Assembly: GCF_000009705.1 (NCBI RefSeq)
Contig: NC_003272.1
Location: forward strand, 2,640,001 to 2,672,000
DNA: 32,000 nucleotides
Origin: Nostoc sp. PCC 7120 = FACHB-418
GTDB taxonomy: Bacteria > Cyanobacteriota > Cyanobacteriia > Cyanobacteriales > Nostocaceae
Direction: 5' to 3'
The notes beneath the pieces were generated by a model. It ran no database searches. It was not told the DNA's origin and was given only the letters and a program-made list of their open reading frames with translations. The translations under genes were made by a program, and so were the position numbers. Positions 5,595 to 27,630 of this stretch are shown here, piece after piece. Numbering within the stretch: the first letter of the stretch is position 1; the number at the start of each line of letters is the position of its first letter.

Positions 5595-6443
5595 ATGTTA
5601 CAACCTACAAGTATTAATTTGATAATTCTCCAAAGTCACAAGAGAACTATCGCAGATATGCCAACCAGGAACTGGCAAAAGTTGATTAGGCTTGTTTTCC
5701 TGATGCTGCTGGCATTTGGTGTTACCTTAATATTGGCTACAGAACCAGCTTTTGGACAAGAATCGGCTCAAAACGCTCCAGGGTTTAATCCCCAAGCATG
5801 GTTAAAAAATGCTTTGCAGTGGATTGATGGTCTTGGTGCTGTGGGAGCATTAGCATTTATCCTCCTTTATATCATTGCCACTGTTGCCTTTTTACCAGGA
5901 TCAATCCTTACTCTCGGTGCAGGTGTGGTCTTTGGCGTGGTTTGGGGTTCGCTTTATGTCTTCATTGGTGCAACTATAGGTGCTACCGCCGCTTTCTTGG
6001 TCGGACGTTATTTGGCTAGGGGATGGGTTGCTAAGAAGATTGTCGGGAATCAGAAATTTCGGGCGATTGATGAAGCGGTAGGTAGAGAAGGGCTGAAAAT
6101 TGTACTATTAACGCGACTTTCTCCTATATTCCCTTTCAATTTGTTGAACTATGCCTATGGCGTAACAGGAGTTTCCCTCAAAGATTATGTTCTTGCTTCC
6201 ATTGGCATGATTCCCGGTACAATTATGTATGTTTATATCGGTTCTTTAGCTGGTAGTATTGCCACTATTGGTACTGAATCTCAACCTGGGAATCCTGGCG
6301 TACAGTGGGCAATTCGGATTATCGGCTTTATCGCTACGGTTGCTGTGACAATTTATGTGACTAAAGTTGCTCGCAAGGCTTTAGAAGATGAAGTTTTAGA
6401 GTCCACAAACGATGATGAAAATAAACAAATCAACCTGAATTAG
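5595..6443 (+). CDS. TVP38/TMEM64 family (SNARE-associated/DedA-like) membrane protein
   Basis: GAGVVFGVVWGSLYVFIGATIGATAAFLVGRYLAR...LLTRLSPIFPFNLLNYAYGVT is typical of the family. The real start may be the internal MPTRNW. Confidence 0.8.
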   Translation: MLQPTSINLIILQSHKRTIADMPTRNWQKLIRLVFLMLLAFGVTLILATEPAFGQESAQNAPGFNPQAWLKNALQWIDGLGAVGALAFILLYIIATVAFLPGSILTLGAGVVFGVVWGSLYVFIGATIGATAAFLVGRYLARGWVAKKIVGNQKFRAIDEAVGREGLKIVLLTRLSPIFPFNLLNYAYGVTGVSLKDYVLASIGMIPGTIMYVYIGSLAGSIATIGTESQPGNPGVQWAIRIIGFIATVAVTIYVTKVARKALEDEVLESTNDDENKQINLN

Positions 6444-6461
6444 TTAATCAAAGACTTATTT

Positions 6462-6665
6462 CGTAGTTGGGGACTTTATATTGCCAAAGGTGCATTTGAA
6501 AAAGAATCTCCTTTATTTTGTGAACCTGGGTTTTTCTTAGTTAAGCCAGACGGCACACTTTTCTATGCTGCCGTAAATAGCGCACCTTTTGGTAGTCCAC
6601 CCATATCAGATATGCTCTCTGCTATTGACTTTATTTTGCTGACCCATCATGCCACACCCGGCCAT
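6462..6665 (+). pseudogene. C-terminal remnant of a peroxiredoxin-like/redoxin-family gene
   Basis: No start codon. In the same frame as, and right after, the TAG stop of 5595..6443 it reads [71 protein letters not shown]..., EPG[FL]F[LV].P.G, SAPF..P and IDFI match the tail of a thioredoxin-fold peroxiredoxin-like family as I recall it. Confidence 0.45.
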
Positions 6666-7954: not shown

Positions 7955-8036
7955 GTGTGCGGCACTGCTGGATAGATTTAGTCTTGGTTAGTGTTGCAGA
8001 TTGTTTTGCGTCTGAAAGCATGGAGTGTGGGGTAGG

Positions 8037-10673: not shown

Positions 10674-10714
10674 GCAGAGAAAACCAAAAAAATATTCCAA
10701 ATTGACAGTTTAGT

Positions 10715-10778
10715 AGGGTGTATCAGTATAAATAATTTCTTGATATACTTGTTGGGATTCCTCGCACTGATGCACCCT
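10715..10778. repeat. Hairpin repeat related to the inner arms of the 1263-1385 element
   Basis: AGGGTGTATCAGT (10715-10727) pairs with ACTGATGCACCCT (10766-10778), 12/13. It shares GGTG..T.A...TATAAAT and CACCCTA with the inner repeat at 1294-1355. Confidence 0.45.
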
Positions 10779-10903
10779 ATATTTGTAATATTTTTCTCTG
10801 GAAGTCCCTAGCAGTTAATTATCACCAATTGCTGTGAAGGTACACATTATTTGCTCACTGTATAATTATGTATATCTTCGCAGCAAAATAAAATTCAAGG
10901 TTG

Positions 10904-11896
10904 ATGAAAAAAAAGAAGATTTGGGCTTTAATTTGGAGAAAGTCTGCTTTTAGATGGTTATTAATATCTATTTTTACCGCCATCATAATTTCAGCTTGCA
11001 GCTATAACGTAAGCAAGGATGAGAATGGCAAAGTAAAGACTGTTAAATCACATTTCACACCCTGTTACGTAGTGAAGCACAAAATGGGAGAAACCTGTGT
11101 TCCCCAGAATCCTCAACGTATTGTTGTTTTAGCTCAAACTACTTTGGCAAATGTTCTAGCTTTAGGTGTGAAACCAATTGGTATACTAGGTGCTGATTTA
11201 CCTACCTATCTCCAACAAGCCAGGGATATTCAAGTAGTTGGTGAGGGATGGGAACCTGATGTTGAAAAAATTTTGCTGCTTAAACCCGATCTGATTCTTG
11301 GCAAAGAGTACCATCGCACACAATATAATACATTATCACAGATTGCTCCAACGGTACTCTTGGAATGGAACGGCACACCTTCTTGGAAACAGCATTTAGA
11401 AGATGTTGCCCAGGTTTTAAATAAAACAGATCAAGCCAAATCCTTAATGCGAAATTACCACCAACGGCTGGAAGAATTTAAAATAAAAATGGGCGATCGC
11501 CTGAAAAATCTTCAAATTTCCTACATCGATATATTGGTAGGTTATATCTGGTGTGATGTGAAAAATTCCTTTGCAGGGACGATTCTAGCAGATGCAGGTT
11601 TACAGCATCCTTCTGCTCAAGAAGTTGTGACTAAAGGTGGATACATTACATTTGGTTTAGAAACCATGCCAATGGATGCAGACGGAGATGTAATTTTTAC
11701 TAGCCATTGGATGGATGAAGATGGTGCAAAAGCTTTGAAAAGAAATCAAAATAACCCTCTTTGGCGCAAACTCAAAGCCGTAGAACAGAACCAAGTATAT
11801 GTTGTTAATCGTCACTTTTGGCGAGGTTCAAATATTCTTGCTGCTCACAAAGTCATTGATGATTTATTTAATTATTTAGTAGATGCGAAAAGTTAA
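10904..11896 (+). CDS. Fe(3+)-siderophore ABC-type periplasmic binding lipoprotein (FhuD/FecB-like)
   Basis: Lipobox IISAC. Conserved C..VKH..GE.C.P..PQR.V start of the mature domain, LKPDLILG, SQIAPT. Paralogue of 14776.. and 15775.. Confidence 0.85.
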   Translation: MKKKKIWALIWRKSAFRWLLISIFTAIIISACSYNVSKDENGKVKTVKSHFTPCYVVKHKMGETCVPQNPQRIVVLAQTTLANVLALGVKPIGILGADLPTYLQQARDIQVVGEGWEPDVEKILLLKPDLILGKEYHRTQYNTLSQIAPTVLLEWNGTPSWKQHLEDVAQVLNKTDQAKSLMRNYHQRLEEFKIKMGDRLKNLQISYIDILVGYIWCDVKNSFAGTILADAGLQHPSAQEVVTKGGYITFGLETMPMDADGDVIFTSHWMDEDGAKALKRNQNNPLWRKLKAVEQNQVYVVNRHFWRGSNILAAHKVIDDLFNYLVDAKS

Positions 11897-12013
11897 CGCG
11901 CCCAAGGCTGGGCCTAGTCCATTACTATTTAACCCGCCCCTAATATCTTGGAATTACAACCTATTGCCAGATATTTGCTACTTACTTGCAGGGTTATGTC
12001 AAAAATTAATCAC

Positions 12014-12046
12014 ACTCTCCGTCTATGGTTCAAAACTCTCCGTCTA
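12014..12046 (+). promoter_or_regulatory. Direct repeat ACTCTCCGTCTA x2 (21-bp phase), candidate AraC-type operator
   Basis: Perfect 12-mers at 12014-12025 and 12035-12046, about 100 nt upstream of receptor 2. CCGTCTATG also occurs upstream of receptor 1 (7907-7915). The pair is flanked by the decamer TTACTTGCAG at 11982-11991 and 12103-12112. Confidence 0.4.
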
Positions 12047-12142
12047 CTATGTAGACTTACGCTTCGTAAATTACATAAACTCTTTCCACAGAAAGTTGCA
12101 AATTACTTGCAGTATTGAGTTTGACTTTGTGGAGTGAGGGGT

Positions 12143-14698
12143 ATGGAGTCTCGACCATCGAAAGAAATTATTTCAGCCGGGATTGTCTTGGCACTTGTAT
12201 CATTGCTTTTACAACCAGCTGTTGCGGAAACCAAATCACATCATTCTATCAGTACGGCGAAGTTACTACTGGCACAACAAAGTGATGTTTCATCTGTGCA
12301 AGTGACAGGCGTAAAAGTCACTAATACAGATAAAGGTATCGAAGTGACTTTAGAAAGTTCTAAACCAGAAGCACTGCGACCTGTGATTAAAAGTGCAGAG
12401 AATAATTATATTGCAGATGTCCCTAATGCAGTCTTAGCACTACCGGAAGGTAAAGAATTTAGCATTGCTAATCCAGTAAGCGGGATTGTATCTGTGATTG
12501 TTACTCAAGCTGATGCTAATACTGTACGGGTAACGGTAACAGGTGAGACGGGTTTACCAACAGCAGAATTATTTGATAGTGAAGAAGGTTTAATCTTTGC
12601 ACTTGCTCCTATAGCTTCAACGATACCAGCACCAGAACAACCAGAACAGCCGACAAGTGAAACACCACCAGCACAACCAACAGCAGAAAATAATGAACCT
12701 ATTGAATTGGTTGTTACAGGAAACCAAGACCAGTATCGTGTAGAAGAGTCATCAACTGCAACTAAAATTGATGCTCCCCTACGTGACATTCCCGCATCTG
12801 TTCAGGTAATTCCCAAAGAAATTATCCAAGATCGCCAAGTGGTGAGGCTGAATGAGTTAGCTAATAACGTCAGTGGCGTACAACAGCAATCGGGTTACGG
12901 TGGACTATCGTCTTCAGGTTACTTTATTCGCGGTTTTGAGTCAGGTTTTGAAGGGCTGCGTAACGGATTTAAAGATTTTGGTTTTACCAGTCCTCGTGAT
13001 GTCGCTAACATTGAACGAGTTGAGTTTCTCAAAGGCCCTGCATCAGTCCTGTATGGCAGTGCTAATAACCCTGGTGGTGTCGTGAATACAATCACCAAGA
13101 AACCTTTACCAGACCCTTCTTACAGGGTAGGTATGACTATTGGCAGTTATGACTTTTATCGCCCCACAATTGATTTTACTGGGCCCTTAACAGACGATAA
13201 ATCGGTATTATACCGCCTGAATGTTGCCTATGAAAACTCTGGTAGCTTTCGAGATTTTATTGAAAACGAAAGTTTCTTTATATCTCCTGTAGTTACAGTC
13301 AATATTAGTCCAAAAACCAGCATGACTTTTGAGTACGAATATCAAAAGTATAACTATACATTTGATAGGGGCTTGTTACCTGGAAACACGTTTTTCCAAA
13401 TTCCTATCAGCAGATTTTTAGGTGAACCTGGTTTCAATAACGCTGAGTTTATATCCAATGTATTTACCTACAATTTAGAACACCAATTCAGCGATGATTG
13501 GAAATTCCGTCAAGGATTTAATGTCACTAGTATCCGTGGTAATACTCGCATAGCACGTAACACCAATTTTTCTGAACCTTTTTTAGAAGACGATGGACAG
13601 ACACTTCCACGTACATCTGAGACATCAGATGAAGAACAGGAAAACATTTCGCTGCAAACCGAAGTTAGCGGTAAGTTTAATACAGGTTCTATCCGTCATA
13701 ATGTTTTGTTAGGAGTAGAACTAGCAAAATACAAATTTACTTACGATTTTTTCAGCGCACCAATTGCCAGTATAGACATATTTAATCCAGTGTATGGCGC
13801 GCAACCAGGAACATTTGATAGGTCTTTTGCTGGAGAATATGGCGGTGATAATTTGGCAGTGTATTTCCAGAATTTGATTGAATTTACACCTAATCTAAAA
13901 TTATTGGCTGGTGGACGCTTTGATTGGATAGATTCTTTTGACAGAGATCCAGTAAGCAATACTGTGAATAATGAAGTTTCAGAATCCAATTTTTCGCCGC
14001 GAGTAGGTATTGTCTACCAACCTACTAACTCCACTTCACTCTATGCGAGTTGGACAAATTCTTTTAACCCGCAATTTTTTGGACGTAGCCGTACAGGTGA
14101 GTCGTTTAAGCCAGAAACATCGGAACAATTTGAGGTTGGCATCAAACAAGAATTTTTTGACAAGCGACTATCAGCCACTTTGGCATATTTTGACATCACT
14201 AAAAACAATGTACTCACTCCTGATCCTGTAGACAATAATTTCAGTGTTCAAATTGGTGAGCAAAAAAGCCGTGGTTTGGAATTAGATATTGCAGGTGAAA
14301 TTTTACCAGGATGGAAAATCATCGCTACCTATGCTTATATAGATTCTTCTGTCAGCAAAGACAATGATTTAGAACGGTTAAATGATCGGTTATCCGGAGT
14401 ACCATTTAATAGTGCTAGTTTGTGGACAACTTATGAATTTCAAAAAGGTAGTTTGGCAGGGTTAGGATTTGGTTTAGGGCTTGTTTATGTAGACGAACGG
14501 GAAGCTACTCTGCCAAATACGATCAAAATCCCCTCTTATGTCAGAACTGACGCTAGTATTTTTTACCGCCGAGATAACTGGCGAGCAGCCATAAATATCA
14601 AAAATTTGTTCGATACAGAATATTATGAGTCTCAGAGTTTTTATTTAGTGCCGGCTGCACCGTTGACTGTATTAGGAACAATTTCTTTTGAGTTTTGA
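12143..14698 (+). CDS. TonB-dependent siderophore receptor (FhuA/FhuE-type) with N-terminal AMIN-like domain
   Basis: Signal peptide ending AVA-ETK. AMIN-like module nearly matching receptor 1, linker, PIELVVTG, plug (IPASVQVIPKEIIQDRQ, FIRGF, IERVEFLKGPASVLYG), barrel ending ISFEF. ATG 12143 preferred over GTG 12134. Confidence 0.9.
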   Translation: MESRPSKEIISAGIVLALVSLLLQPAVAETKSHHSISTAKLLLAQQSDVSSVQVTGVKVTNTDKGIEVTLESSKPEALRPVIKSAENNYIADVPNAVLALPEGKEFSIANPVSGIVSVIVTQADANTVRVTVTGETGLPTAELFDSEEGLIFALAPIASTIPAPEQPEQPTSETPPAQPTAENNEPIELVVTGNQDQYRVEESSTATKIDAPLRDIPASVQVIPKEIIQDRQVVRLNELANNVSGVQQQSGYGGLSSSGYFIRGFESGFEGLRNGFKDFGFTSPRDVANIERVEFLKGPASVLYGSANNPGGVVNTITKKPLPDPSYRVGMTIGSYDFYRPTIDFTGPLTDDKSVLYRLNVAYENSGSFRDFIENESFFISPVVTVNISPKTSMTFEYEYQKYNYTFDRGLLPGNTFFQIPISRFLGEPGFNNAEFISNVFTYNLEHQFSDDWKFRQGFNVTSIRGNTRIARNTNFSEPFLEDDGQTLPRTSETSDEEQENISLQTEVSGKFNTGSIRHNVLLGVELAKYKFTYDFFSAPIASIDIFNPVYGAQPGTFDRSFAGEYGGDNLAVYFQNLIEFTPNLKLLAGGRFDWIDSFDRDPVSNTVNNEVSESNFSPRVGIVYQPTNSTSLYASWTNSFNPQFFGRSRTGESFKPETSEQFEVGIKQEFFDKRLSATLAYFDITKNNVLTPDPVDNNFSVQIGEQKSRGLELDIAGEILPGWKIIATYAYIDSSVSKDNDLERLNDRLSGVPFNSASLWTTYEFQKGSLAGLGFGLGLVYVDEREATLPNTIKIPSYVRTDASIFYRRDNWRAAINIKNLFDTEYYESQSFYLVPAAPLTVLGTISFEF

Positions 14699-14706
14699 TC
14701 TAGTTC

Positions 14707-14749
14707 ATGAAACATACACAGCCCTTAAATTAAATTAGGGCTGTTTCAT
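14707..14749 (+). terminator. Stem-loop terminator candidate
   Basis: ATGAAAC...CAGCCCT (14719-14725) - loop - AGGGCTG (14737-14743) GTTTCAT. There is only a weak T tract. Confidence 0.4.
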
Positions 14750-14775
14750 ATCCAAACTTCTTATGACAGCAGAAA

Positions 14776-15756
14776 ATGAAACCTAAATATCGATACAAGT
14801 ATATAAAACTACTCTTAGTAATTACTTTAACCATAGTATTTTTTAAAGGGTGTCATAGCTTTTTAACACAAAATATATATTCATCAAATGAATATGTAAA
14901 ATCAACAGAATGTCGAATAATTAAACATAAATTAGGCGAAATTTGTATTCCTCTTAATCCGCAACGCATTATTGTGACTGACCCAGAAAATTTAGAGATA
15001 TTATTAGCATTAGGTATAAAGCCAATAGCATCAGCAAGAGCAAATGCAGTAGGTAATAAAGTCAACATATTAGATAAGGATAAAGTTGATGGGATTATTA
15101 ATTTAGGAAAAGAAAGCCAAATAAATCTTGAAAGGATTATCCAGCTAAACCCAGATTTAATTCTAGGTTTTTCATACAGTTCTCAAGATTATAAATTACT
15201 TTCACAAATAGCTCCTACAGCTTATTTTAATTATACAGAAACAGACTGGAAAAAAACTTTACTAGAAGTTGCAGAAGTAGTTAATAAAACAAAAAAGGCG
15301 GAAAAATTATTAGAAGAATATCAACACAGAATTGAAGATTTAAAATTAAAATTTACTCAAAAAAATAAAAACACAAAAATTTCTGTAATGCGATTTTATA
15401 CAACTATTCAATTTACACAATTTTTGAATGAGTTATCGTTTCCTGTCAGCATTTTAGAGGAATTGAAATTATCTATCCCTCTGGCACAACGGCAAGTTAG
15501 TAGAGGTGCAAATGTCAGTTATAACAATGTTAGTTTAGAACGTGTAGATTTACTAGAATCAGACGCGATGTTTATCGCATTAGATCCAGGTGCAGAAGAA
15601 AATTTTCAAACATATCAGAATAGTCCTCTATGGCAAACACTAAATGTAGTAAAAAATAACCATGTATATACCGTTGATTCTGGTTACTGGATTTTTGGAA
15701 ATATTTTGTCAGCTAATGCTATTTTAGATGACATCGTTAAATATTTAGTGGAATAA
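14776..15756 (+). CDS. Fe(3+)-siderophore periplasmic binding lipoprotein (FhuD-like), paralogue 2
   Basis: Lipobox FFKGC. ECRIIKHKLGEICIPLNPQRIIV, LNPDLILGF, SQIAPT, C-terminal DSGYWIFGNILSANAILDDIVKYLVE. Very AT-rich. Confidence 0.85.
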   Translation: MKPKYRYKYIKLLLVITLTIVFFKGCHSFLTQNIYSSNEYVKSTECRIIKHKLGEICIPLNPQRIIVTDPENLEILLALGIKPIASARANAVGNKVNILDKDKVDGIINLGKESQINLERIIQLNPDLILGFSYSSQDYKLLSQIAPTAYFNYTETDWKKTLLEVAEVVNKTKKAEKLLEEYQHRIEDLKLKFTQKNKNTKISVMRFYTTIQFTQFLNELSFPVSILEELKLSIPLAQRQVSRGANVSYNNVSLERVDLLESDAMFIALDPGAEENFQTYQNSPLWQTLNVVKNNHVYTVDSGYWIFGNILSANAILDDIVKYLVE

Positions 15757-15774
15757 TTAATTTAATATCTAATA

Positions 15775-16752
15775 ATGAAACAGTTTTTACATCGTTATAT
15801 CAAGTTATTTATTCTCATACCCCTAACTTTAGTTTTGGTTAATAGTTGTTATATTAATTATCCTGAAAATTCCGGCTTGATAACGACAAGAATAAAAACA
15901 TCTGAGTGTAGACTAATCAAACATCCTTTAGGTGAAAGCTGCGTTCCTGTAAAACCTCAGCGCGTTATTGCTTTAGATGAAACCTCTATGGAAGCATTGT
16001 TAGCACTGGACTTAAAACCAATAGCTACAGCACAGCCTAATATTGCAGGTAGCATAATACAAAAGTTGGGTAAAAAAGCTGAAGGTATAGTTTCTTTAGG
16101 GAAAGATGGTCAGCCAAATATAGAAAAAATGGTGCAATTAAATCCAGATTTAATTTTGGGTTTTTCTGTGAGCGCAGAACAATACAAATTATTTTCCCAA
16201 ATAGCACCGACAGTTACACTTGATTATATTCAATTTGCTTGGAAAGATGCTTTATCACGTATTGCTGAAATCATAGATAAAAGTGAACAAGCAAAAATAT
16301 TACTTGAGCAATATCAGCAAAGAGTTAAAGAATTACGCACCTTTATAAATTATAATCTCAAAGAAAAAACTGTTTCGGTGAGTCGCTTTTATGCTGGTAA
16401 TCAAGTTCCAGAGTTTCGTACTAAATATTCATTTCCTGGAAGTTTACTTACAGAAGTGAGAATACCTGTACCAGAGATGCAAAATCAACTGACTACTAAT
16501 GAAAATCAGCCTTTAGTTTCAGTTAGTTTAGAGCGTTTAGAGTTATTAGATGCAGATGTTTTATTTGTAGCTTTAGACCCTGGTGCAGAAGAGTCATTTC
16601 AAAAATATCAAAACACTCCTTTATGGCAAAAGCTAGATGTCGTGAAAAATCAGCGCGTGTATGCGGTTGATTCTGGTTACTGGATATTTGGCAATATTCT
16701 ATCAGCTAATGCCATTTTAGATGACCTATTTAAATACTTAGTAGGAAAATAA
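15775..16752 (+). CDS. Fe(3+)-siderophore periplasmic binding lipoprotein (FhuD-like), paralogue 3
   Basis: Lipobox LVNSC. Same conserved blocks as 14776..15756, including an identical DSGYWIFGNILSANAILDD. Confidence 0.85.
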   Translation: MKQFLHRYIKLFILIPLTLVLVNSCYINYPENSGLITTRIKTSECRLIKHPLGESCVPVKPQRVIALDETSMEALLALDLKPIATAQPNIAGSIIQKLGKKAEGIVSLGKDGQPNIEKMVQLNPDLILGFSVSAEQYKLFSQIAPTVTLDYIQFAWKDALSRIAEIIDKSEQAKILLEQYQQRVKELRTFINYNLKEKTVSVSRFYAGNQVPEFRTKYSFPGSLLTEVRIPVPEMQNQLTTNENQPLVSVSLERLELLDADVLFVALDPGAEESFQKYQNTPLWQKLDVVKNQRVYAVDSGYWIFGNILSANAILDDLFKYLVGK

Positions 16753-17630
16753 TGTTGCAACAAATAACTAACAATAGTGTACAAAATTTCTTACAGGAAG
16801 TATTTACTCTTGCTCAAAATACTTTAGATAGTTTCTATACGGACTGCATAATTTTACCTCAGCCACCTGATGGTGTTGAGGTAATTTCATTAAATAATTA
16901 TTTACAACCAGATAGACTTTTATCTCAATGGCAAGCCAGCGATATATACCAAAAAACTCAAGATATTCGCATTGCTGCATCTATCTGGAACAAAGTTTAT
17001 AGCTGGACAACATTACCGGGTGTTTTAGCCTTGATGACTTGGGCTGGTGTCGGTTTAGATGCTGGGTTAGATAATGTGAGTTTTGTATTAGAAGACGGTG
17101 AACCCAAAGCTTTATGGTTTAATGATTTGAGTGGTACTGTAATTTATCCTCAGAGATTACCTATCCCCATTCCTCAAGACTACCCTGGAAAAATAGTAAA
17201 TAGTCTAGAAGGCTTACATCAAGCTGTATTTACAGGCTTATTCCAGCGTAATGTAGCCCCAATGATAGACCATGTTCATCGCTTAACCAAACTCTCCAAA
17301 AAAACTATGTGGGGTAATGCGGTGAACGCCTCAGAAGGACTGTTTGCTGAAATTAATAAATGTACAAATTTAGAAGCAATACAAACAGATTATTCCGTCT
17401 TGTATGAACAACCATACAGTTCAGTTATGCCGGGACGCAATTCCCTTTACAACTTAGTACGCACTGAACAACTCAACGAACCCGGTTTACCAGCTACAAC
17501 CACAGTCCGTCTTACCTGTTGTTTATATGCTTTTATTCCTCCATTTGATGAAAAGTGTACAAACTGTCCTCTATTAAAACCACAGGAACGAATTTCTCAA
17601 ATAAGAGAATATATGAAAGAATCCGAGTGA
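16752..17630 (+). CDS. FhuF-type ferric-siderophore reductase ((2Fe-2S)-binding C-terminus)
   Basis: C-terminal C-C-x10-C-x2-C motif (RLTCCLYAFIPPFDEKCTNCPL), characteristic of FhuF. The start ATG overlaps the upstream stop (TAATG). Confidence 0.75.
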   Translation: MLQQITNNSVQNFLQEVFTLAQNTLDSFYTDCIILPQPPDGVEVISLNNYLQPDRLLSQWQASDIYQKTQDIRIAASIWNKVYSWTTLPGVLALMTWAGVGLDAGLDNVSFVLEDGEPKALWFNDLSGTVIYPQRLPIPIPQDYPGKIVNSLEGLHQAVFTGLFQRNVAPMIDHVHRLTKLSKKTMWGNAVNASEGLFAEINKCTNLEAIQTDYSVLYEQPYSSVMPGRNSLYNLVRTEQLNEPGLPATTTVRLTCCLYAFIPPFDEKCTNCPLLKPQERISQIREYMKESE

Positions 17631-17704
17631 AAGTATATTTTTTGGTGTTGCATACTTATGAGTGATTTTTATTTCGCAGAGGCGCAGAGAGTAAGAAAAT
17701 TTTT

Positions 17705-19039
17705 ATGCTACAACAACCAAATCCAGCTAGTATGCGTAATTTTCTTATTGTTTGGCTTGGTCAATTAGTGTCTACCATTGGTAGTAATATGACCGGGTTT
17801 GCGATTGAAATTTGGGCATGGGAAATTACGGGTAAAGCTACAACTCTGACGCTGGTAAGTTTTTTTAGTTTGCTACCAAGTATTATTATTACCCCGATTA
17901 GTGGTGTAATTGTAGACAGATTTAACCGCAAATTTTTAATGATGGTGGGTGATACAGTTGCAGTTCTCAGCACAATTGTAATTTTGTTGTTGCATCTCAC
18001 AAATAATCTACAAATCTGGCACTTTTATTTAACAGGCGCGATTGTCGGAACTTTCAATCAATTTCAATCTTTGGCGTATTCAGCATCAGTATCACTGATG
18101 ATTCCTAAGCAGCACTATACCCGTGCTAGTAGTTTAGAATTTTTATCTGGTTATGGTAGTAATATTATTGCACCTGCTTTGGCGGGTTATCTTTACACAG
18201 TTATCGGTTTTTTAGGAATTTGGTTGATTGATATTTCGACGTTTCTTATAGCAATTGGAAGCTTATTATTTGTGAGTATTCCTCAACCAATACCACCAAC
18301 CACAAAAAACGAAAATATAGCCAACATTTGGCAAGATTTGGGGTTGGGTTGGCGTTATATTACTACTCACAAAAGTTTGCTGGCACTGTTAATAGTTAAT
18401 GTATTATTTTGGCTACCCCATGACATTGGAGATTCCCTTTACTCGCCCATGATTTTATCGCGCACTAATAATAATACTTTAGTGCTAGGTAGCTTGGCTG
18501 CTGCGGCTGGTTTTGGTGGTGTCACAGGGGCGATAGTTGTTAGCACTTGGGGCGGTTTCAGACGAAAAATTAAAGGTGTTTTATGGGGGATGATGGGTGC
18601 TGGTATTAGTAAAATTGTGTTTGGTTTGGGGAGAACACCTTGGGTTTGGATTCCAGCACAATTTTGTTCTTCTTTCAATTTCCCTTTGAATGGCAGTGCG
18701 GATAGTGCTATTTGGTTAGCGAAAGTACCCCCCGATGTGCAAGGAAGAGTTTTTGCAGCGCGATCGCTACTTTTACAGATCGCTTCTGCTGTAGGCTATT
18801 TAATAGCAGGGCCTTTGGCAGATCAAGTTTTTACACCTGCTTTGCAATCAGGCGGTGTTCTAGTTGGCATTCTCGGCGGATTATTTGGGACTGGTACTGG
18901 TGCAGGAATCGCGCTGTTATATGTAATTTGTGCGCTGTGTATGTTACTGGTCGGTTGGTTAGGCTTTTCTATACCTGTGCTGCGGAATTTAGAAGAGATT
19001 CTCCCCGACTATGATACAGAGTATAGCCAGTTGAGATGA
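17705..19039 (+). CDS. MFS transporter (EntS/MFS_3-like, 12 TM)
   Basis: Polytopic, with the MFS loop motif GVIVDRFNRKFLM between TM2 and TM3. Direction of transport is not deducible. Confidence 0.8.
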   Translation: MLQQPNPASMRNFLIVWLGQLVSTIGSNMTGFAIEIWAWEITGKATTLTLVSFFSLLPSIIITPISGVIVDRFNRKFLMMVGDTVAVLSTIVILLLHLTNNLQIWHFYLTGAIVGTFNQFQSLAYSASVSLMIPKQHYTRASSLEFLSGYGSNIIAPALAGYLYTVIGFLGIWLIDISTFLIAIGSLLFVSIPQPIPPTTKNENIANIWQDLGLGWRYITTHKSLLALLIVNVLFWLPHDIGDSLYSPMILSRTNNNTLVLGSLAAAAGFGGVTGAIVVSTWGGFRRKIKGVLWGMMGAGISKIVFGLGRTPWVWIPAQFCSSFNFPLNGSADSAIWLAKVPPDVQGRVFAARSLLLQIASAVGYLIAGPLADQVFTPALQSGGVLVGILGGLFGTGTGAGIALLYVICALCMLLVGWLGFSIPVLRNLEEILPDYDTEYSQLR

Positions 19040-20525: not shown

Positions 20526-20620
20526 ACTGGGGACTGGGGATTGATGACTGTTGACTGATGACTGTTGACTGATGACTGATGGCTGTTGACTGATGACTGG
20601 TGACTGATGACTGGTGACAC
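20526..20620. repeat. STRR heptamer array A (ACTGGGG/ACTGATG/ACTGTTG, 13 units)
   Basis: Read directly. ACTGGGG is the complement of STRR1 CCCCAGT. The array is stop-free on the phn sense strand and abuts the phnM start. Confidence 0.95.
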
Positions 20621-21542: not shown

Positions 21543-22316
21543 TTAGGGCGTTAGTGCAGCACTGACTAATAGTTGAGTGTATGGATGTTGTGGATCATCA
21601 AGTACTTGGTCAGTTAAACCTGATTCCACTACTTGTCCTTGCTGCATGACTAGTAATCTGTGCGCCAGTAGCCTGACTACGCCGATATCGTGGGTGACTA
21701 TAATCACACTCAGGTGAAAATTGCGGACAAGCGATCGCAACAAATCCAATAACCGCGCTTGCACTGACACATCTAAACCTCCCGTCGGTTCGTCCATCAA
21801 AATCAATCGAGGACGCGTTACCAACACACGTGCAAGTTGTAATCTTTGCTGCATTCCTCCCGAAAATTGGGCTGGCAAATCATCTATCCGTGTCGGGTCA
21901 ATTTCAACTTCTCGTAACCAGTGGGCAGCCTCATCCCGAATATTGCCATAGTGGCGCACCCCAATATCTAGCAAGCGTTCCCCTATATTCGCCCCCGCAC
22001 TCACCCGCATTCGCAAACCATCACGGGGATTTTGCTGGACAAAACCCCACTCCGTTCGCATCAATAAACGCCGTTTAGCTTCCGCAAGTTGAAATATTTC
22101 TAAGTCTTCACCGCTACGGCTAATATAAGTAACATTACCGTGATCAACTGCAATGTGATCGGCTATTGCACCCAGCAAAGTAGACTTACCAGAACCAGAT
22201 TCGCCGACAATACCGAGAACTTGCCCAGGATAGAGGTCAAAAGAAATGCGATCGCAAGCCTTAATCCCACCGTAAGATTTACTCAATTCGTGAACTTGTA
22301 AAAGAGGTTTAGTCAT
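21543..22316 (-). CDS. phnK: PhnK, C-P lyase system ATP-binding subunit
   Basis: GIVGESGSGKSTLL, RTEWGFVQQNPRDGLR, FSGGMQQRLQLAR, GGLDVSVQARLLDLL and HPYTQLLVS are colinear with E. coli PhnK. Confidence 0.92.
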   Translation of the reverse strand: MTKPLLQVHELSKSYGGIKACDRISFDLYPGQVLGIVGESGSGKSTLLGAIADHIAVDHGNVTYISRSGEDLEIFQLAEAKRRLLMRTEWGFVQQNPRDGLRMRVSAGANIGERLLDIGVRHYGNIRDEAAHWLREVEIDPTRIDDLPAQFSGGMQQRLQLARVLVTRPRLILMDEPTGGLDVSVQARLLDLLRSLVRNFHLSVIIVTHDIGVVRLLAHRLLVMQQGQVVESGLTDQVLDDPQHPYTQLLVSAALTP

Positions 22317-22547
22317 TAGTCATTAGTCATTAGTCATTGGTCATTAGTCATTAGTCATTGGTCATTAGTCATTGGTCATTGGTCATTAGTCATTGGTCAT
22401 TGGTCATTGGTCATTGGTCATTAGTCATTGGTCATTGGTCATTGGTCATTAGTCAACCGTCACCAGTCATCAGTCATCAGTCATCAGTCAACCGTCAACC
22501 GTCACCAGTCATCAGTCATCAGTCATCAGTCAACCGTCATCAGTCAC
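22309..22547. repeat. STRR array D (TTAGTCA/TTGGTCA then CAGTCAT/CCGTCAA), about 34 units filling the whole phnJ-phnK spacer
   Basis: TTGGTCA is STRR2. The array overlaps the phnK ATG (22314-22316) and the last codons and stop of phnJ (22530-22547). Confidence 0.97.
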
Positions 22548-23491: not shown

Positions 23492-24052
23492 TTAGATGTG
23501 TGACAGCTTATTTAAGGAGGCGGTTATAAATTGGGTGAAGTGATTTAAATCGGGTGTGTGGAGATTTGTGATTTTGGCTTTGTCGTCAAAAATCCTTAAC
23601 TGTACAGCATCTTCGGCGTATGGTTGTTGAATAAATTGCTCTGCTTGTTCTGGGGAAAATATGCCTCCTTGCAGTTCTAGGCTGCGTTTGGATGCGGCTG
23701 AGAGGTTTTCCCAATATTCGGGAATAACTGAGCAAAGATAGCGTTTGGCGACGACATGAAGCCTAATCGGTTCTGTGACTGCTGGACTGAACATCTGACT
23801 TAGTAAAGGTATGGCGCGATGTTCATGATGGTCATCTATGCCTTGGCTGGCTGGATTATCACCTAAGTCATGGATTAAATGCCCTAAATCATGAAGTAGA
23901 CAAGCGGTAATCAATTCATGGGTTTGGCCTGATGCTTCGGCGAGGCTAGCGCATTGTAAGGCGTGTTCTAGTTGACTAATAGCTTCCGCGCCGTATAATT
24001 GAGAACCTTTTTCGGTGAATAGGTTGATAATGTTTTCGATGGTGGGTTTCAT
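23492..24052 (-). CDS. HD-domain metal-dependent phosphohydrolase of the type associated with phosphonate-degradation operons
   Basis: HALQCASLAE...ACLLHDLGH (H...HD motif), ~186 aa, embedded between C-P lyase genes. Confidence 0.75.
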   Translation of the reverse strand: MKPTIENIINLFTEKGSQLYGAEAISQLEHALQCASLAEASGQTHELITACLLHDLGHLIHDLGDNPASQGIDDHHEHRAIPLLSQMFSPAVTEPIRLHVVAKRYLCSVIPEYWENLSAASKRSLELQGGIFSPEQAEQFIQQPYAEDAVQLRIFDDKAKITNLHTPDLNHFTQFITASLNKLSHI

Positions 24053-24151: not shown

Positions 24152-25831
24152 TTACTGGGTTTGATATCTTGCAACTTCTTTTCCTGCTACATATACGGAT
24201 GCTATCGCCGTAATTGCAGAAGGTAAGGAATTATTAGGAGATATCAATAGGAAATCAGCGTCTAAACCTGGGGCGATTTTACCTTTGCGATCGCTTATTC
24301 CCGCCGCTTCTGCTGGTCGGCTGGAAACTAATGACCATGCTTGTTCAAAGGACATTAAGCCTAATTCTTGGAGCTTGAAGGGGGCGTAAAACAAGGAAGG
24401 GTAATGATAATCTGAGCAGAGACAATCGATGACGTTATGTTTCACAGCTTCAGCTACACTCATTAAGCCCAAGTGCGAGCCACCGCGCACTAAGTTAGGC
24501 GCACCCATGAGGACGGCTGCACCATATTCACGAGATTGAGCAGCTAAATCTACAGTTGCGGGAAATTCGGCGATCGCTACTCGGCGTTGTTGACTGAGTT
24601 TTACCTTCTCTGGGCTATCATCATCATGGGACGCGAGGGGGATATTATATGTATGAGCTAAATCCACCAGTTCTTGTATTTGTCCATCTCCTTCATGTCG
24701 CCTTGCTGTGACTTGGGTGATTAATTCTTCAATCTCTTCTATGGACATGGATGATCTTTGCTTCACACTGTTGAGATAACGGCTCAATCTCTTGTAATTT
24801 CCTGGTGGTGGTAGGTGATCGTTGATAGACAAAAGATGCACGTGACCGGATACCATCCAATCACATAACTCTTGATGTTCTGCTATATTTGCCTCTTCAT
24901 GTCTAATATGAATCCGATGATTGCTATTTAAAACTTGTTTACCTGTCCCTAAGATGAAGTCAATTAAAGCACGAGCAGAATCTCGGCTGCGTAATCCTGG
25001 TTCGTAAGAGTCGGTGATTGAGCAGTAAAAAGTGGTAATACCCGATGCTAAGAGGTTGCGGTCATTATCGGCGATCGCTATTGGTAGAGGAAAGTTAACC
25101 CCAGGGCGTGGACAAATCATCCTTTCAAAAGCATCGCCATGCAGGTCAATAATTCCTGGCAACATTTGGAGACCTTGAGCATTGATCAATTGATATCCAT
25201 CAGGAGTAATTGCTTGATCAATAGTGATAAATTTTCCATCTTCAATTAAAACTGTGGCATCATTAAGCCAACCATCAAGAGTTAATACATTTACTCCTTG
25301 AATAGCAATTTTTGTATTATTTTGATTGTTAACTGTTGATTGTTGACTTTTGACTGTTGATTGTTGACTTTTGACTTTTGATTGTTGACTTTTGACTTTT
25401 GATTGTTGATTGTTGACTGATTCACTAAAAAATTTCATCTCTTCATAGGGGGCTTTTTTAGTAGCGGCAATTCTAGAAGATAAATCACCCACATGGAGTT
25501 CTAGCTTGTGGTGATCGGGGTCAAGAATATATATAGAATCACCTTCACTTGTATTTTGTTTCCACTGTTTTACTCCTAAAACTTTGAGGCGATCGCTATA
25601 TTCTAAAAACTTCTCTTCAGGGATGCTAAAAGCAATATGAGTGTATTCGTCCATCTGATTTGTGCGTGTGTTGGCATCTAAAGATAGGCACAACCACAAG
25701 TCACCTGCTAATAGATAAGCACCTCTTTGCCATTGAGCGATCGCTTGACAACCTATAATTTCTGTATAAAATTTCAAAGATTTCTCCAAGTCGGAGACAG
25801 ATAAAGTAATGTGGTTGATTCCTGTAATTAT
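24152..25831 (-). CDS. Fusion protein: FosA-like VOC/glyoxalase (fosfomycin-resistance type) domain + repeat-encoded linker + PhnM-like amidohydrolase
   Basis: N-terminal domain: (I)ITGINHITLSVSDL..GAYLLAGDLWLCLSLD..YTHIAFSI..WKQNTSEGDSIYILDPDHHKLELHVGDLSSRIAATKKAPYEEMKF, colinear with FosA as I recall it. Linker NNQQSKVKSQQSKVKSQQSTVKSQQSTVNNQNN is encoded by array G. C-terminal domain: LPGIIDLHGDAFE, HIRHEE, LASHDDDS, AEFPAT, LMGAPNLVRGGSH, CSDYHYPS. The track starts at TTG 25789, but the conserved first strand lies upstream and the codon aligned to FosA Met1 is ATA (25829-25831). The 5' boundary is therefore uncertain. Confidence 0.75.
   Translation of the reverse strand: MITGINHITLSVSDLEKSLKFYTEIIGCQAIAQWQRGAYLLAGDLWLCLSLDANTRTNQMDEYTHIAFSIPEEKFLEYSDRLKVLGVKQWKQNTSEGDSIYILDPDHHKLELHVGDLSSRIAATKKAPYEEMKFFSESVNNQQSKVKSQQSKVKSQQSTVKSQQSTVNNQNNTKIAIQGVNVLTLDGWLNDATVLIEDGKFITIDQAITPDGYQLINAQGLQMLPGIIDLHGDAFERMICPRPGVNFPLPIAIADNDRNLLASGITTFYCSITDSYEPGLRSRDSARALIDFILGTGKQVLNSNHRIHIRHEEANIAEHQELCDWMVSGHVHLLSINDHLPPPGNYKRLSRYLNSVKQRSSMSIEEIEELITQVTARRHEGDGQIQELVDLAHTYNIPLASHDDDSPEKVKLSQQRRVAIAEFPATVDLAAQSREYGAAVLMGAPNLVRGGSHLGLMSVAEAVKHNVIDCLCSDYHYPSLFYAPFKLQELGLMSFEQAWSLVSSRPAEAAGISDRKGKIAPGLDADFLLISPNNSLPSAITAIASVYVAGKEVARYQTQ
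25322..25419. repeat. STRR array G (TTGATTG/TTGACTT/TTGACTG, 14 units) inside a coding region
   Basis: Read directly. Sense strand reads CAGTCAA/AAGTCAA/CAATCAA, which is open in all frames. Confidence 0.95.
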
Positions 25832-25840
25832 TCTGAAAGA

Positions 25841-25877
25841 GGGTTTAGGGGTATAAGGGTTTAGGGGTGTAGGGGTT
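25841..25877. repeat. G-rich tandem repeat GGGTTTAGGGGTRTA x2 + GGGGTTG
   Basis: Read directly. It contains GGGGTGTAGGGG (25864-25875), whose complement recurs at 26592-26603. Confidence 0.85.
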
Positions 25878-25885
25878 GAAAATAC

Positions 25886-27133
25886 TTACACCTTACCAAC
25901 GGGAGAATTTTCTTTATTTAAATTTTGATTTCCTAAAGGCTGAGATTCTTTCAACGTAATATTTGAATCTGGCGATTGATTATTTACTTGTTGTTGTCTA
26001 ATCTTCCGCACTAGATTTAATTCGGATTGAAAGTCAATGTAGTGTGGAAGCTTGAGGTGTTGGACAAAACCTTGTGCTTCTACGTTGTCAGAGTGGGAAA
26101 GGACAAACTCGACACTTTGGGCTGGGCCTTGAATTGTTTCCCCTAATTCCTCAGCACGCATCGCTCTATCTACTAACGCCATTGACATGGCTTTACGTTC
26201 GTTGTAACCAAAGGTCAAACCATAGCCACGTGTAAATTGAGCAGGTAATTCTTTACTACCTTTAAACTGATTGACCATTTGCACCTCGGTAACAGTAATA
26301 TCTGCGATCGCTATTTCAAATCCCAATTCTTCTGGACAAATCACCACCTCTACTTCCCCCATGCGAATCTCACCCGCAAAAGGATGGTTTCTGCCATAGC
26401 CTCGCTGTGTAGAATAAGCCAGAGACAGTAAAAAACCCTCATCTGCACGCGCTAGATTTTGCAGTCTCGCATCCCGTCCCGCCGGAAAGGTCAACGGTTG
26501 GCGAGTGATGTCAAAGGGTTGTTGATGGTTGACTGTTGACTGTTGACTGTTGATGGTTGACTGGGAATTATTGCAAAATTCTTCCCCTGCACCCCTACAC
26601 CCCTGCACCCCTACACCCCCATACCCCTCTGCCTGCATCAATCCTTCCCGATCTAAAGTGTCAATTACACGGGGAACTGGTTCTGTAATTGCTTCTGCTT
26701 CTGGTGCTGTCGGAACTTGTCCTTCTGCTATTAACTTAAAGTCTAGTAGGCGGTGGATGTAGTCGAAGGTAGTCCCTAACCTTTGTCCTCCTGGCACATC
26801 TTTAAAAATGGCAGAAATGCGGCGCTGAATCTGCATTTTACTGGTGTCTAGAGGCTGGCTGTAGTAAAAACGGGGCAGTGTTGTACGATAGGCGCGTAAT
26901 AAGAAAATTGCTTCGACTAAATCACCCCAAGATTGTTTAATAGCTAGGGCTGCTAACTCTCTATCATATAAACTACCCTCACACATTACCCGTTCTACTG
27001 CTAGGGTAAGTTGTTGTTCAATCTGGTCTAAGGTCAATTCGGGAATTGCAGGATCACCTCTGCGTCGGCTTTGCAAGAGTGCTTCTGCATTTTGAATTGC
27101 CTGTTCACCACCTTTGACTGCAACGTATGGCAT
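25886..27133 (-). CDS. phnI: PhnI, C-P lyase core subunit (nucleosidase/ribosyl transferase) with in-frame repeat insertion
   Basis: MPYVAVKGGEQAI, EAIFLLRAYRTTL, RRISAIFKDVPGGQ, YSTQRGYGRNHPFAGEIR, FTRGYGL, HLKLPHYIDFQ are colinear with E. coli PhnI. Start moved to ATG 27133. The C-terminal ~35 residues are low-complexity. Confidence 0.92.
   Translation of the reverse strand: MPYVAVKGGEQAIQNAEALLQSRRRGDPAIPELTLDQIEQQLTLAVERVMCEGSLYDRELAALAIKQSWGDLVEAIFLLRAYRTTLPRFYYSQPLDTSKMQIQRRISAIFKDVPGGQRLGTTFDYIHRLLDFKLIAEGQVPTAPEAEAITEPVPRVIDTLDREGLMQAEGYGGVGVQGCRGAGEEFCNNSQSTINSQQSTVNHQQPFDITRQPLTFPAGRDARLQNLARADEGFLLSLAYSTQRGYGRNHPFAGEIRMGEVEVVICPEELGFEIAIADITVTEVQMVNQFKGSKELPAQFTRGYGLTFGYNERKAMSMALVDRAMRAEELGETIQGPAQSVEFVLSHSDNVEAQGFVQHLKLPHYIDFQSELNLVRKIRQQQVNNQSPDSNITLKESQPLGNQNLNKENSPVGKV
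26518..26565. repeat. STRR array H1 inside phnI
   Basis: GTTGATG GTTGACT x3 GTTGATG GTTGACT GGG. Encodes NSQSTINSQQSTVNHQQ. Confidence 0.9.
26584..26631. repeat. Tandem octamer CCCCTRCA x6 inside phnI
   Basis: CCCCTGCA CCCCTACA CCCCTGCA CCCCTACA CCCCCATA CCCCTCTG. Encodes GYGGVGVQGCRGAG. Confidence 0.9.
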
Positions 27134-27142
27134 ATATTTTTT

Positions 27143-27167
27143 GTTGATGGTTGACGGCTGACTGGGG
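27143..27167. repeat. Short STRR array I between the GNAT gene and phnI
   Basis: GTTGATG GTTGACG GCTGACT GGGG. The flank GGGGATTATCCAAAATT resembles GGGAATTATTGCAAAATT next to array H1. Confidence 0.8.
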
Positions 27168-27168
27168 A

Positions 27169-27630
27169 TTATCCAAAATTTTGGGTTGGTTGGAGTACGC
27201 ATTTAAAACTCCAGCCGTGCTGCTCGAAGCCTAGTGATTGATAGAATTGATGGGCGCGGCTACGTTTTAAATTGGAAGAGAGCATGACTTTATAGCACCC
27301 AGCATCAGCACTGAGTTTGAGCGCAGCTTTTACCATTTGGCTACCAATACCCTCTCCTCGCATTGAAGAAATTACTGTTACTGAATCTAGGACTGCAAAT
27401 TTGTGATATCCCCGGTGCATCATTGTTGGTGCATAGAGGAGACTAAAAGTGCCTACAGGTTGCTGATTTAAATAGGCAATATATGTGTGGTAATTGGGAA
27501 CTTGTGCGATTTCTGCGAAGATTTTTTCTAAATCATCGTTGGGTAAAGGTGGCTCACCATCCATGTCAGCATAGAGCTGATTTAATACAGACCAATCCTC
27601 ATGAGTAGCAATGCGAATCTCAAGAGCCAT
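27169..27630 (-). CDS. phnO: GNAT N-acetyltransferase, PhnO-like (aminoalkylphosphonate N-acetyltransferase type)
   Basis: GNAT motif A (VISSMRGEGIGSQMV). The tail LSSNLKRSRAHQFYQSLGFEQHGWSF resembles E. coli PhnO [26 protein letters not shown]. Start moved to ATG 27630 (MALEIRIA), overlapping the phnH end by 11 nt. Confidence 0.6.
   Translation of the reverse strand: MALEIRIATHEDWSVLNQLYADMDGEPPLPNDDLEKIFAEIAQVPNYHTYIAYLNQQPVGTFSLLYAPTMMHRGYHKFAVLDSVTVISSMRGEGIGSQMVKAALKLSADAGCYKVMLSSNLKRSRAHQFYQSLGFEQHGWSFKCVLQPTQNFG

Follow-up and report, generated by a model that had tools for sequence, protein, structure and literature searches.

A FosA-type domain fused through a heptamer-repeat linker to a PhnM paralogue in the C-P lyase operon of Nostoc sp. 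PCC 7120

In the cyanobacterium Nostoc sp. PCC 7120, the minus strand of a 32,000-nucleotide stretch of DNA (NC_003272.1, positions 2,640,001 to 2,672,000; hereafter the window, whose first letter is position 1) carries a phn operon for the C-P lyase pathway, and directly after phnI this operon holds one gene with two dissimilar domains. The gene probably encodes, from an ATG start, a 559-residue protein in which a FosA-type domain is tied by a low-complexity linker to a second PhnM-like domain (PhnM2), the two having been joined by heptamer repeats and the product having a phosphonate-related role. The frame is open from just past the phnI stop (TAA 25888-25886) to TAA 24154-24152, a run of 577 codons, and all three parts lie within it (25885-24155). 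An earlier note on this DNA, made from the letters alone, had described such a continuous three-part frame, and each sequence feature that it listed was found again in place. What deserves to be followed is the setting of fosA, conserved within the operon, and the making of the fusion by repeats; the puzzle posed by the start codon is an artefact or a private single-nucleotide polymorphism.

Identity of the two domains

The N-terminal domain matches the NCBIfam equivalog model NF000496 (Fos_GSH) over residues 20-152 of the 577-codon frame, with 185.0 bits, which narrowly exceeds the cut-off of 180. None of the allele-specific 'exception' models is matched above its own cut-off, as is expected for a distant member of the family. 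Searches with phmmer retrieved FosA chains of the Protein Data Bank (PDB) at E ~1e-43 (K. pneumoniae, PA1129, Tn2921 and FosA3), and the bit scores fall from 145-151 for FosA chains to 71-84 for FosB and 54-66 for FosX; identity to the PA1129 and K. pneumoniae enzymes is 51-53%. In PA1129 numbering, the Mn2+ ligands His7, His64 and Glu110 are kept in the window and in all 36 homologues that have a phn context. The window also has the K+ loop residues Asn92, Ser94, Glu95, Gly96 and Ser98 (WKQNTSEGDSIY) and the substrate contacts Thr9, Lys90, Tyr100 and Arg119, and both sets are invariant or nearly so in the 36 homologues within phn operons. Five further residues of PA1129, Tyr39, Trp34, Ser50, Gln36 and Arg93, have been proposed for glutathione binding and activation, and the first three of these are kept in the window.

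Structure prediction leads to the same family. An AlphaFold model that covers the FosA domain alone has a predicted local distance difference test score (pLDDT) of 80.6, with ~59-65 for the leader encoded by the phnI/fosA spacer. When the model was compared to known structures by Foldseek, FosA structures ranked first (template modelling score 0.89-0.90, root-mean-square deviation 1.7-1.9 A), followed by FosB and then FosX. The earlier proposal of a FosA-type VOC domain is borne out by the hidden Markov model (HMM) score, the catalytic residues and the predicted fold together, FosA being placed ahead of FosB and FosX both in the sequence comparison and in the structural one. On this evidence the N-terminal domain is predicted to have the fold of the FosA-family glutathione transferases of the Mn2+/K+ type. 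A generic glyoxalase was considered for this domain and was ruled out by the HMM cut-off, the residue table, the PDB sequence search and the fold search.

Compared with characterised FosA (PA1129, PDB 1LQK/1LQP; K. pneumoniae, PDB 5V3D), the domain has the same catalytic-domain length, Mn2+ ligands, K+ loop and substrate contacts, and a matching predicted fold. It differs in its setting, since the window gene lies within a C-P lyase operon after phnI whereas known fosA genes stand alone on a chromosome or plasmid, in its C-terminal fusion to a PhnM paralogue, and in carrying Thr at position 93 and Arg at position 36.

In the C-P lyase pathway of E. coli, PhnM serves as alpha-D-ribose 1-methylphosphonate 5-triphosphate diphosphatase. 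The C-terminal domain shares with it the amidohydrolase fold, the H-x-D first metal motif (DLHGD in PhnM2, ELHTD in the canonical PhnM of the operon) and full-length matches to PhnM-family models. One of these, NF011987 (PRK15446.2-3), is matched over residues 182-577 of the 577-codon frame (model positions 1-389 of 395) with 640.2 bits against a cut-off of 253. The score against the PhnM equivalog TIGR02318 is 333.9 bits, below the cut-off of 390.55, and PhnM2 is 33% identical to the canonical PhnM of its own operon. Unlike PhnM, it usually lies beside an HD-domain oxygenase-like gene. A PDB search with the PhnM2 domain returned distant amidohydrolases only. Judged by these profile matches, the C-terminal domain is a PhnM paralogue and not the canonical PhnM equivalog, in keeping with the earlier distinction between a complete PhnM-like amidohydrolase at this site and the phnM gene that ends at 19385.

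Start codon, repeat linker and origin of the fusion

In the window, the codon at 25831-25829 reads ATA, and the earliest ATG, GTG or TTG of the 577-codon frame is TTG 25789, which would give an open reading frame (ORF) of 545 amino acids. The earlier note had placed this ATA at the codon for Met1 of FosA, and the alignment agrees: the same column holds Met in 23/23 homologues, all of which begin MI(T/L/I)(G/A)(I/L)NH. The PCC 7120 protein BAB73920.1 (500 amino acids, from an internal MDEYTH) and the window frame agree at 100% identity. This protein falls into the same 90%-identity cluster as a 559-residue protein (P0242) that starts MITGINH, equals the window frame in all but residue 1, and comes from A. 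variabilis NIES-23, PCC 7120 DSM 107007 and one metagenome-assembled genome. Start codons were compared in seven contigs encoding the 559-residue protein (L003-L009) and in one FACHB strain assembly (L090), and in all eight, which are from the same or near-identical strains, ATG stands where the window has ATA. A single mismatch separates L003 from the window in 7,680 bp, and it is the start-codon base; this base is also the sole difference in the shorter contigs L005-L007, and in the remaining contigs it is always among the differences (per-contig lists). The ATA is thus private to the PCC 7120 reference record, and it is either a base-call error or a mutation confined to the substrain that was sequenced. 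The normal product is predicted to be the two-domain protein of 559 residues that starts from ATG at 25831-25829, and as every other assembly has this ATG, a special initiation mechanism is not needed.

The annotated length of the product varies from 428 amino acids (RefSeq/PGAP) through 500 (GenBank BAB73920.1) and 541 (MetaClust) to 559 (some submitters). Fused genes are labelled PhnM only, and the stand-alone cyanobacterial genes are automatically labelled 'fosfomycin resistance glutathione transferase'. With an ATA in the reference, an original annotation that begins 59 codons late and a RefSeq 'PhnM' of 428 amino acids, the FosA domain is invisible in the annotations that are most used.

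The linker, residues 139-172 counted from the FosA Met (VNNQQSKVKSQQSKVKSQQSTVKSQQSTVNNQNN), is rich in Q, S, K, V, N and T and is encoded by a heptamer array at 25322-25419. Tandem Repeats Finder assigns this array a period of 7 with 14 copies and, in addition, a period of 21 with 94% matches; together with the translation, it upholds the 34-residue, array-encoded linker of the earlier note. All three frames of the repeat are free of stops on the coding strand, and the part of the window at 19-31 kb holds more than 10 other heptamer arrays. Tandem heptamers of the same CAACAGT / AGTCAAC type are known as short tandemly repeated repetitive (STRR) sequences from heterocyst-forming cyanobacteria, and many intergenic gaps of the present operon are filled by them; CAACAGT is reportedly the unit of STRR3 as named by Mazel and colleagues in 1990. 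The array at the junction differs from these in lying inside a reading frame, in being translated as a linker of Q, S, T, V, N and K, and in being, as it appears, the physical cause of a gene fusion.

Fused orthologues, each starting with ATG, are present in at least six other Nostoc-group genomes: N. parmelioides (559 amino acids), Nostoc sp. CHAB 5824 (553), Nostoc sp. FACHB-152 (538), Komarekiella delphini-convector (564), Nostoc sp. XA010 (546) and N. sphaeroides (548). Their linkers differ in length and content and are all in frame, and all the fused genes have a common 5' junction, KFF-SESVN. Pairwise dN/dS among the fused orthologues (dS up to 0.58) ranges over 0.11-0.32 in the FosA part, apart from a single pair with 0.53, and over 0.09-0.15 in the PhnM2 part, low values which indicate that both domains have been under purifying selection since the fusion. 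Comparison among these genomes indicates that the fusion is real and older than the strain. As a separate observation, the linker of Komarekiella delphini-convector (L013, ~6400-6480) has an extra in-frame, GC-rich segment of ~48 nt, palindromic in appearance (RSQCVARVSRVEATGV), which has the look of a small repeat, mobile or hairpin-forming, that went in between heptamers; a related GC-rich segment occurs in the fosA-phnM2 spacer of another genome (L032).

How the two genes came to be one is suggested by comparative anatomy. In 12 unfused relatives (84-88% identity), a fosA gene for 140 amino acids ends in AGT CAG TGA and phnM2 starts from an overlapping GTG, so that the two share a 4-nt GTGA overlap and the phnM2 frame lies one base behind that of fosA; close unfused relatives thereby show a chain of overlapping stops and starts, phnI-ATGA-fosA-GTGA-phnM2. 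In the fused genes, heptamers of the CAGTCAA type stand exactly at the fosA/phnM2 junction, where the nearest unfused relatives have none, and neither the TGA nor the GTG is left. A gain of heptamer units would have erased the fosA stop codon and would also have supplied the +1 shift that brings phnM2 into the fosA frame, since 7 = 3x2+1 and one unit therefore gives the shift required. After fusion, changes in length would be tolerated only in multiples of three bases, for instance as three heptamers (21 nt), a constraint that agrees with the period of 21 nt found in the array and with orthologous linkers that vary in length yet keep the frame. The earlier note had envisaged two adjacent cistrons, separated by a stop-free array, that fused after loss of a stop. 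The adjacent cistrons hold good, as they are still separate in close relatives; the array between them does not, its place being taken by the GTGA overlap. The event is of the same kind as Rosetta-stone-type stop-loss fusions, in which adjacent operon genes with overlapping stop and start became one ORF, and it differs from them in being tied to a 7-nt repeat that gives a +1 shift and in the subsequent in-frame drift of the linker.

Other explanations of the linker and of the start codon were weighed against this account. Tandem heptamers are hard to assemble, and repeat lengths elsewhere in the operon do differ between contigs of the same strain, so that a wrong copy number might have removed a frame shift or a stop and produced the fusion as an assembly artefact; yet at least nine independent contigs, all coding for one and the same 559-residue protein, agree on the linker, six other species have linkers of other lengths, all in frame, and selection has acted on both domains, so that we consider an artefact barely credible. 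It was rejected on account of the identical linker in independent contigs and the in-frame orthologues. A distance of 57 nt from the phnI stop to the ATA, with 18 sense codons between, places phnI and the fusion gene in one frame, and readthrough of the phnI TAA, or a near-cognate AUA start, might yield a PhnI-FosA-PhnM2 polyprotein or a low level of full-length protein. This shared frame across one TAA had been noticed correctly in the earlier note, but it is not conserved in relatives: among 35 related operons, 28 have a 4-nt ATGA overlap between phnI and fosA and the others are spaced by +83, +18, +11, +16, +92 or +605 nt, while the 54-nt spacer of PCC 7120 arose by insertion of octamer repeats and recurs in N. 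parmelioides alone. The shared frame and the open spacer are thus a coincidence and, with ATG in every other assembly, readthrough or AUA initiation is extremely improbable. The exotic starts put forward in the earlier note (AUA or AUU, readthrough of the phnI TAA, and TTG 25789) were accordingly set aside in the light of the other strain assemblies and the 35 related operons. Recent decay, in which the ATA is genuine, the FosA domain is untranslated and PhnM2 alone is made from an internal start (the ATG of MKFFSES, giving 428 amino acids, the ATG of MDEYTH, giving 500, or TTG 25789), is less far-fetched, and we nevertheless hold it to be unlikely. In its favour are the ATA of the window itself and the late starts of the original GenBank annotation (at MDEYTH) and of RefSeq (at MKFFSES); against this, the eight contigs with ATG include one in which the start codon is the only difference in 7.7 kb, the FosA domain shows no further lesions and has all its catalytic residues intact, and RefSeq gives 428 amino acids even for the FACHB assembly, which has the ATG, so that the short annotations reflect the start-codon choice of the pipeline rather than decay.

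fosA in cyanobacterial phn operons and layout of the window

A survey of 80 species-representative genomes that hold FosA relatives found fosA directly after phnI inside a C-P lyase operon in 35, all of them cyanobacteria (Nostocales, Rivularia, several marine and Pleurocapsales-like genomes, and Halomicronema). Besides the genomes with fused genes, of which at least six were found in addition to PCC 7120 in this comparison of separate and fused forms, about 30 have a stand-alone fosA inside the phn operon. The gene that follows fosA is phnM2 in 27/35 and phnJ in 7/35. Two of these seven, Anabaenopsis (L030) and L033, carry phnM2 earlier in the operon, and the stretch examined in the other five held no phnM2. 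The adjacency of phnM2 and the HD-domain oxygenase-like gene persists where operon order has changed, as in Anabaenopsis, and this adjacency, together with the constant position of fosA after phnI, suggests that there are two separate accessory modules.

Some single genomes are of separate interest. No HD gene was detected beside the early phnM2 of L033, and in Pseudanabaena (L091) phnM2 is followed by a gene of 180 amino acids without a Pfam match. In Nostoc linckia NIES-25 (L029, 6671-6895) and Nostoc sp. ChiSLP01 (L035, 6496-6720), a short fragment 71-77% identical to canonical PhnM, possibly what is left of a decayed operon, follows a fosA relative that in both genomes lies outside a complete phn operon.

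Expression data exist for one orthologue: in Nodularia spumigena CCY9414, a 'VOC family protein' gene between phnI and phnJ belongs to the same transcriptional unit as phnG-M, and it rises by up to a log2 fold change of 2.86 under phosphate limitation (PMC9846622). The odd description of this gene stems from the annotation of the fused N. sphaeroides protein as PhnM. The literature yielded no description of FosA inside C-P lyase operons or of a FosA-PhnM fusion, and where FosA was sought together with C-P lyase or with cyanobacteria, or resequencing of PCC 7120 was looked for, the only pertinent finds were a table row in PMC9846622 and an E. coli study by transposon-directed insertion-site sequencing (TraDIS). 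The author of the earlier note had been aware of no report of this arrangement, and none was found; the arrangement is, all the same, not unique to the strain.

The coordinates of the gene and of its neighbours are listed below.

Table 1. Features of the phn operon in the window
Feature	Position in window	Strand	Evidence
phnI, C-P lyase subunit	25886..27202	-	ORF list; PF05861 PhnI at homologous loci (Pfam); tblastn synteny
phnI/fosA spacer, 54 nt	25832..25885	-	8-mer repeat array 25841-25877 (Tandem Repeats Finder)
Start codon of the fusion gene	25829..25831	-	ATA in window, ATG in other assemblies; differing base 25829
FosA-type domain, residues 1-138, predicted VOC fold of Mn2+/K+ glutathione-transferase type	25418..25831	-	NF000496, PDB matches, residues, AlphaFold model
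Low-complexity linker, residues 139-172, 34 residues	25316..25417	-	Heptamer array 25322-25419; translation
PhnM paralogue domain (PhnM2), residues 173-559, amidohydrolase subfamily NF011987	24155..25315	-	HMM; stop TAA 24154-24152
HD-domain phosphonate oxygenase-like gene, usual phnM2 neighbour	23492..24052	-	TIGR03276
phnJ	23396-22530	-	No NCBIfam match; Pfam PF06007 in homologous loci
phnK	22316-21543	-	NCBIfam equivalog match
phnL	21419-20694	-	NCBIfam equivalog match
Canonical phnM, separate gene	20620-19385	-	TIGR02318, 523.9 bits (cut-off 390.55)
phnG	28741-28286	-	NCBIfam match
phnH	28219-27620	-	NCBIfam match
GNAT acetyltransferase	27696-27169	-	NCBIfam match

Along the minus strand the operon reads phnD, phnE, (phnF, on the plus strand), phnG, phnH, the GNAT gene, phnI, the fusion gene, the HD-domain oxygenase-like gene (TIGR03276), phnJ, phnK, phnL and canonical phnM. 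Most of its intergenic gaps are filled by heptamer arrays, as found by Tandem Repeats Finder, and an Rfam scan of the window gave no match. The gap between phnJ and phnK (22309-22532) is a heptamer array throughout (32 copies in 224 nt). Contig L004, from the same strain, differs from the window within this array, and its called phnK lies 42 nt nearer to phnJ. The listed ORF of canonical phnM (GTG 20620, 411 amino acids) opens with another heptamer array (20542-20618), and as PhnM models match it only from residue 34-39 and orthologues have 378 amino acids, its true start probably lies downstream of the array.

Repeats have also entered phnI, in which an in-frame insert on the minus strand (26520-26628), made of an octamer array and a heptamer array, encodes GYGGVGVQGCRGAGEEFCNNSQSTINSQQSTVNHQQ; Nostoc sp. 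CHAB 5824 has a different loop at this place. In PCC 7120 itself, two metagenome contigs show deletions in the gene, of 16 nt of the octamer array (26584-26599) in L008 and of 7 nt (26780-26786) in L004, and gene callers split phnI in both. These deletions could reflect either repeat-driven on/off switching, to which an 8-bp repeat in E. coli phnE (PMC7566553) is likened, or assembly error. Next to the phn operon, on the plus strand, lies a siderophore-uptake cluster (8025-19039) with two TonB-dependent receptors, three or four binding proteins of the FhuD/FecB type, a FhuF-like reductase and an MFS transporter; in Nodularia, iron-uptake genes are co-induced by methylphosphonate treatment (PMC5955973).

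Possible function and meaning

Phosphate limitation would be expected to switch on the operon, and PhnCDE would then import phosphonates broadly, including reactive ones such as fosfomycin. The FosA domain would open the epoxide of fosfomycin-like phosphonates with glutathione, a thiol that cyanobacteria make. Such opening would protect MurA and cell-wall synthesis, and it may leave an adduct, or an alkylphosphonate, from which the C-P lyase pathway can draw phosphorus. PhnM2 could act as a second hydrolase of the ribosyl-phosphonate-triphosphate diphosphatase type, with a different substrate range. The fusion itself probably brings no new chemistry and would hard-wire a 1:1 co-expression that is already given by the GTGA coupling. 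FosA is a dimer with a free C-terminus in crystal structures, which is why a flexible C-terminal tether should be tolerated. Reasoning from sequence in this way, we suggest that the fusion protein may serve the detoxification or the use of epoxy-phosphonates. In E. coli, expression of the phn operon is selectively advantageous in fosfomycin, and transposon insertions that drive phn are strongly selected, as found by TraDIS (PMC7566553), which provides independent support for a link between phn and fosfomycin.

It is possible, though we lean away from it, that the FosA-like domain is a working step of phosphonate catabolism, with a natural phosphonate or a pathway intermediate as its substrate, and that the fusion reflects a partnership with PhnM2 and not resistance. 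The position of fosA between phnI and phnJ or phnM2 in 35 genomes, with translational coupling to phnI, favours such a role, as do its co-transcription and induction by phosphate limitation in Nodularia, the full conservation of the phosphonate-binding residues, and a fusion that has been kept under selection. On the other hand, with 51-53% identity to proven FosA enzymes and the same active site, opening of fosfomycin is the default expectation. The two roles are, moreover, not mutually exclusive.

Several findings weigh against a catabolic role, against a functional meaning of the fusion, or against the probable reading of the gene more generally. The fosA genes of proteobacteria, Pleurocapsa, Waterburya and Hyella, thus both proteobacterial and pleurocapsalean ones, have no phn neighbours, and other cyanobacterial phn operons, those of Pseudanabaena PCC 6802 and Crocosphaera, have phnM2 but lack fosA, which makes fosA an accessory and not a core gene. 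Where gene order changes, fosA follows phnI and not phnM2, so that the two genes may have fused merely because they were neighbours, with no effect on fitness. In a neighbour-joining tree the fused genes are not monophyletic but form two groups, of which one stands beside the unfused genes of N. mirabile and N. favosum; the fusion may thus have arisen once or twice. PA1129 has Gln36 and Arg93 where the window has the two replacements given above, at positions that vary in FosA relatives outside phn operons too. A literature search for experimental data on any cyanobacterial member of the FosA family found none. Finally, if the ATA is a true mutation of the substrain, little or no full-length protein would be made there.

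FosA is a clinically important resistance enzyme and, to our knowledge, its role outside the clinic is unclear. We put forward, as a tentative proposal that is less likely than not to hold in full, that the C-P lyase pathway of cyanobacteria has in FosA an accessory enzyme of its own, translationally coupled to PhnI and induced by phosphate starvation, which makes epoxy- or otherwise reactive phosphonates imported by PhnCDE both harmless and usable as a source of phosphorus. If so, the fosA genes of Gram-negative pathogens would descend from such catabolic helpers or share their native role, and the FosA-PhnM2 fusion would mark a partnership, in the form of a physical link, that pairs ring opening with the pathway's ribosylation branch. 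Membership of fosA in the operon and its induction by phosphate starvation offer a concrete hypothesis for the native role of FosA, for which PCC 7120 is a genetically tractable model. For the Nostocales, the fusion suggests that 7-nt repeats can weld two translationally coupled genes into one, after which the linker may drift in in-frame steps.

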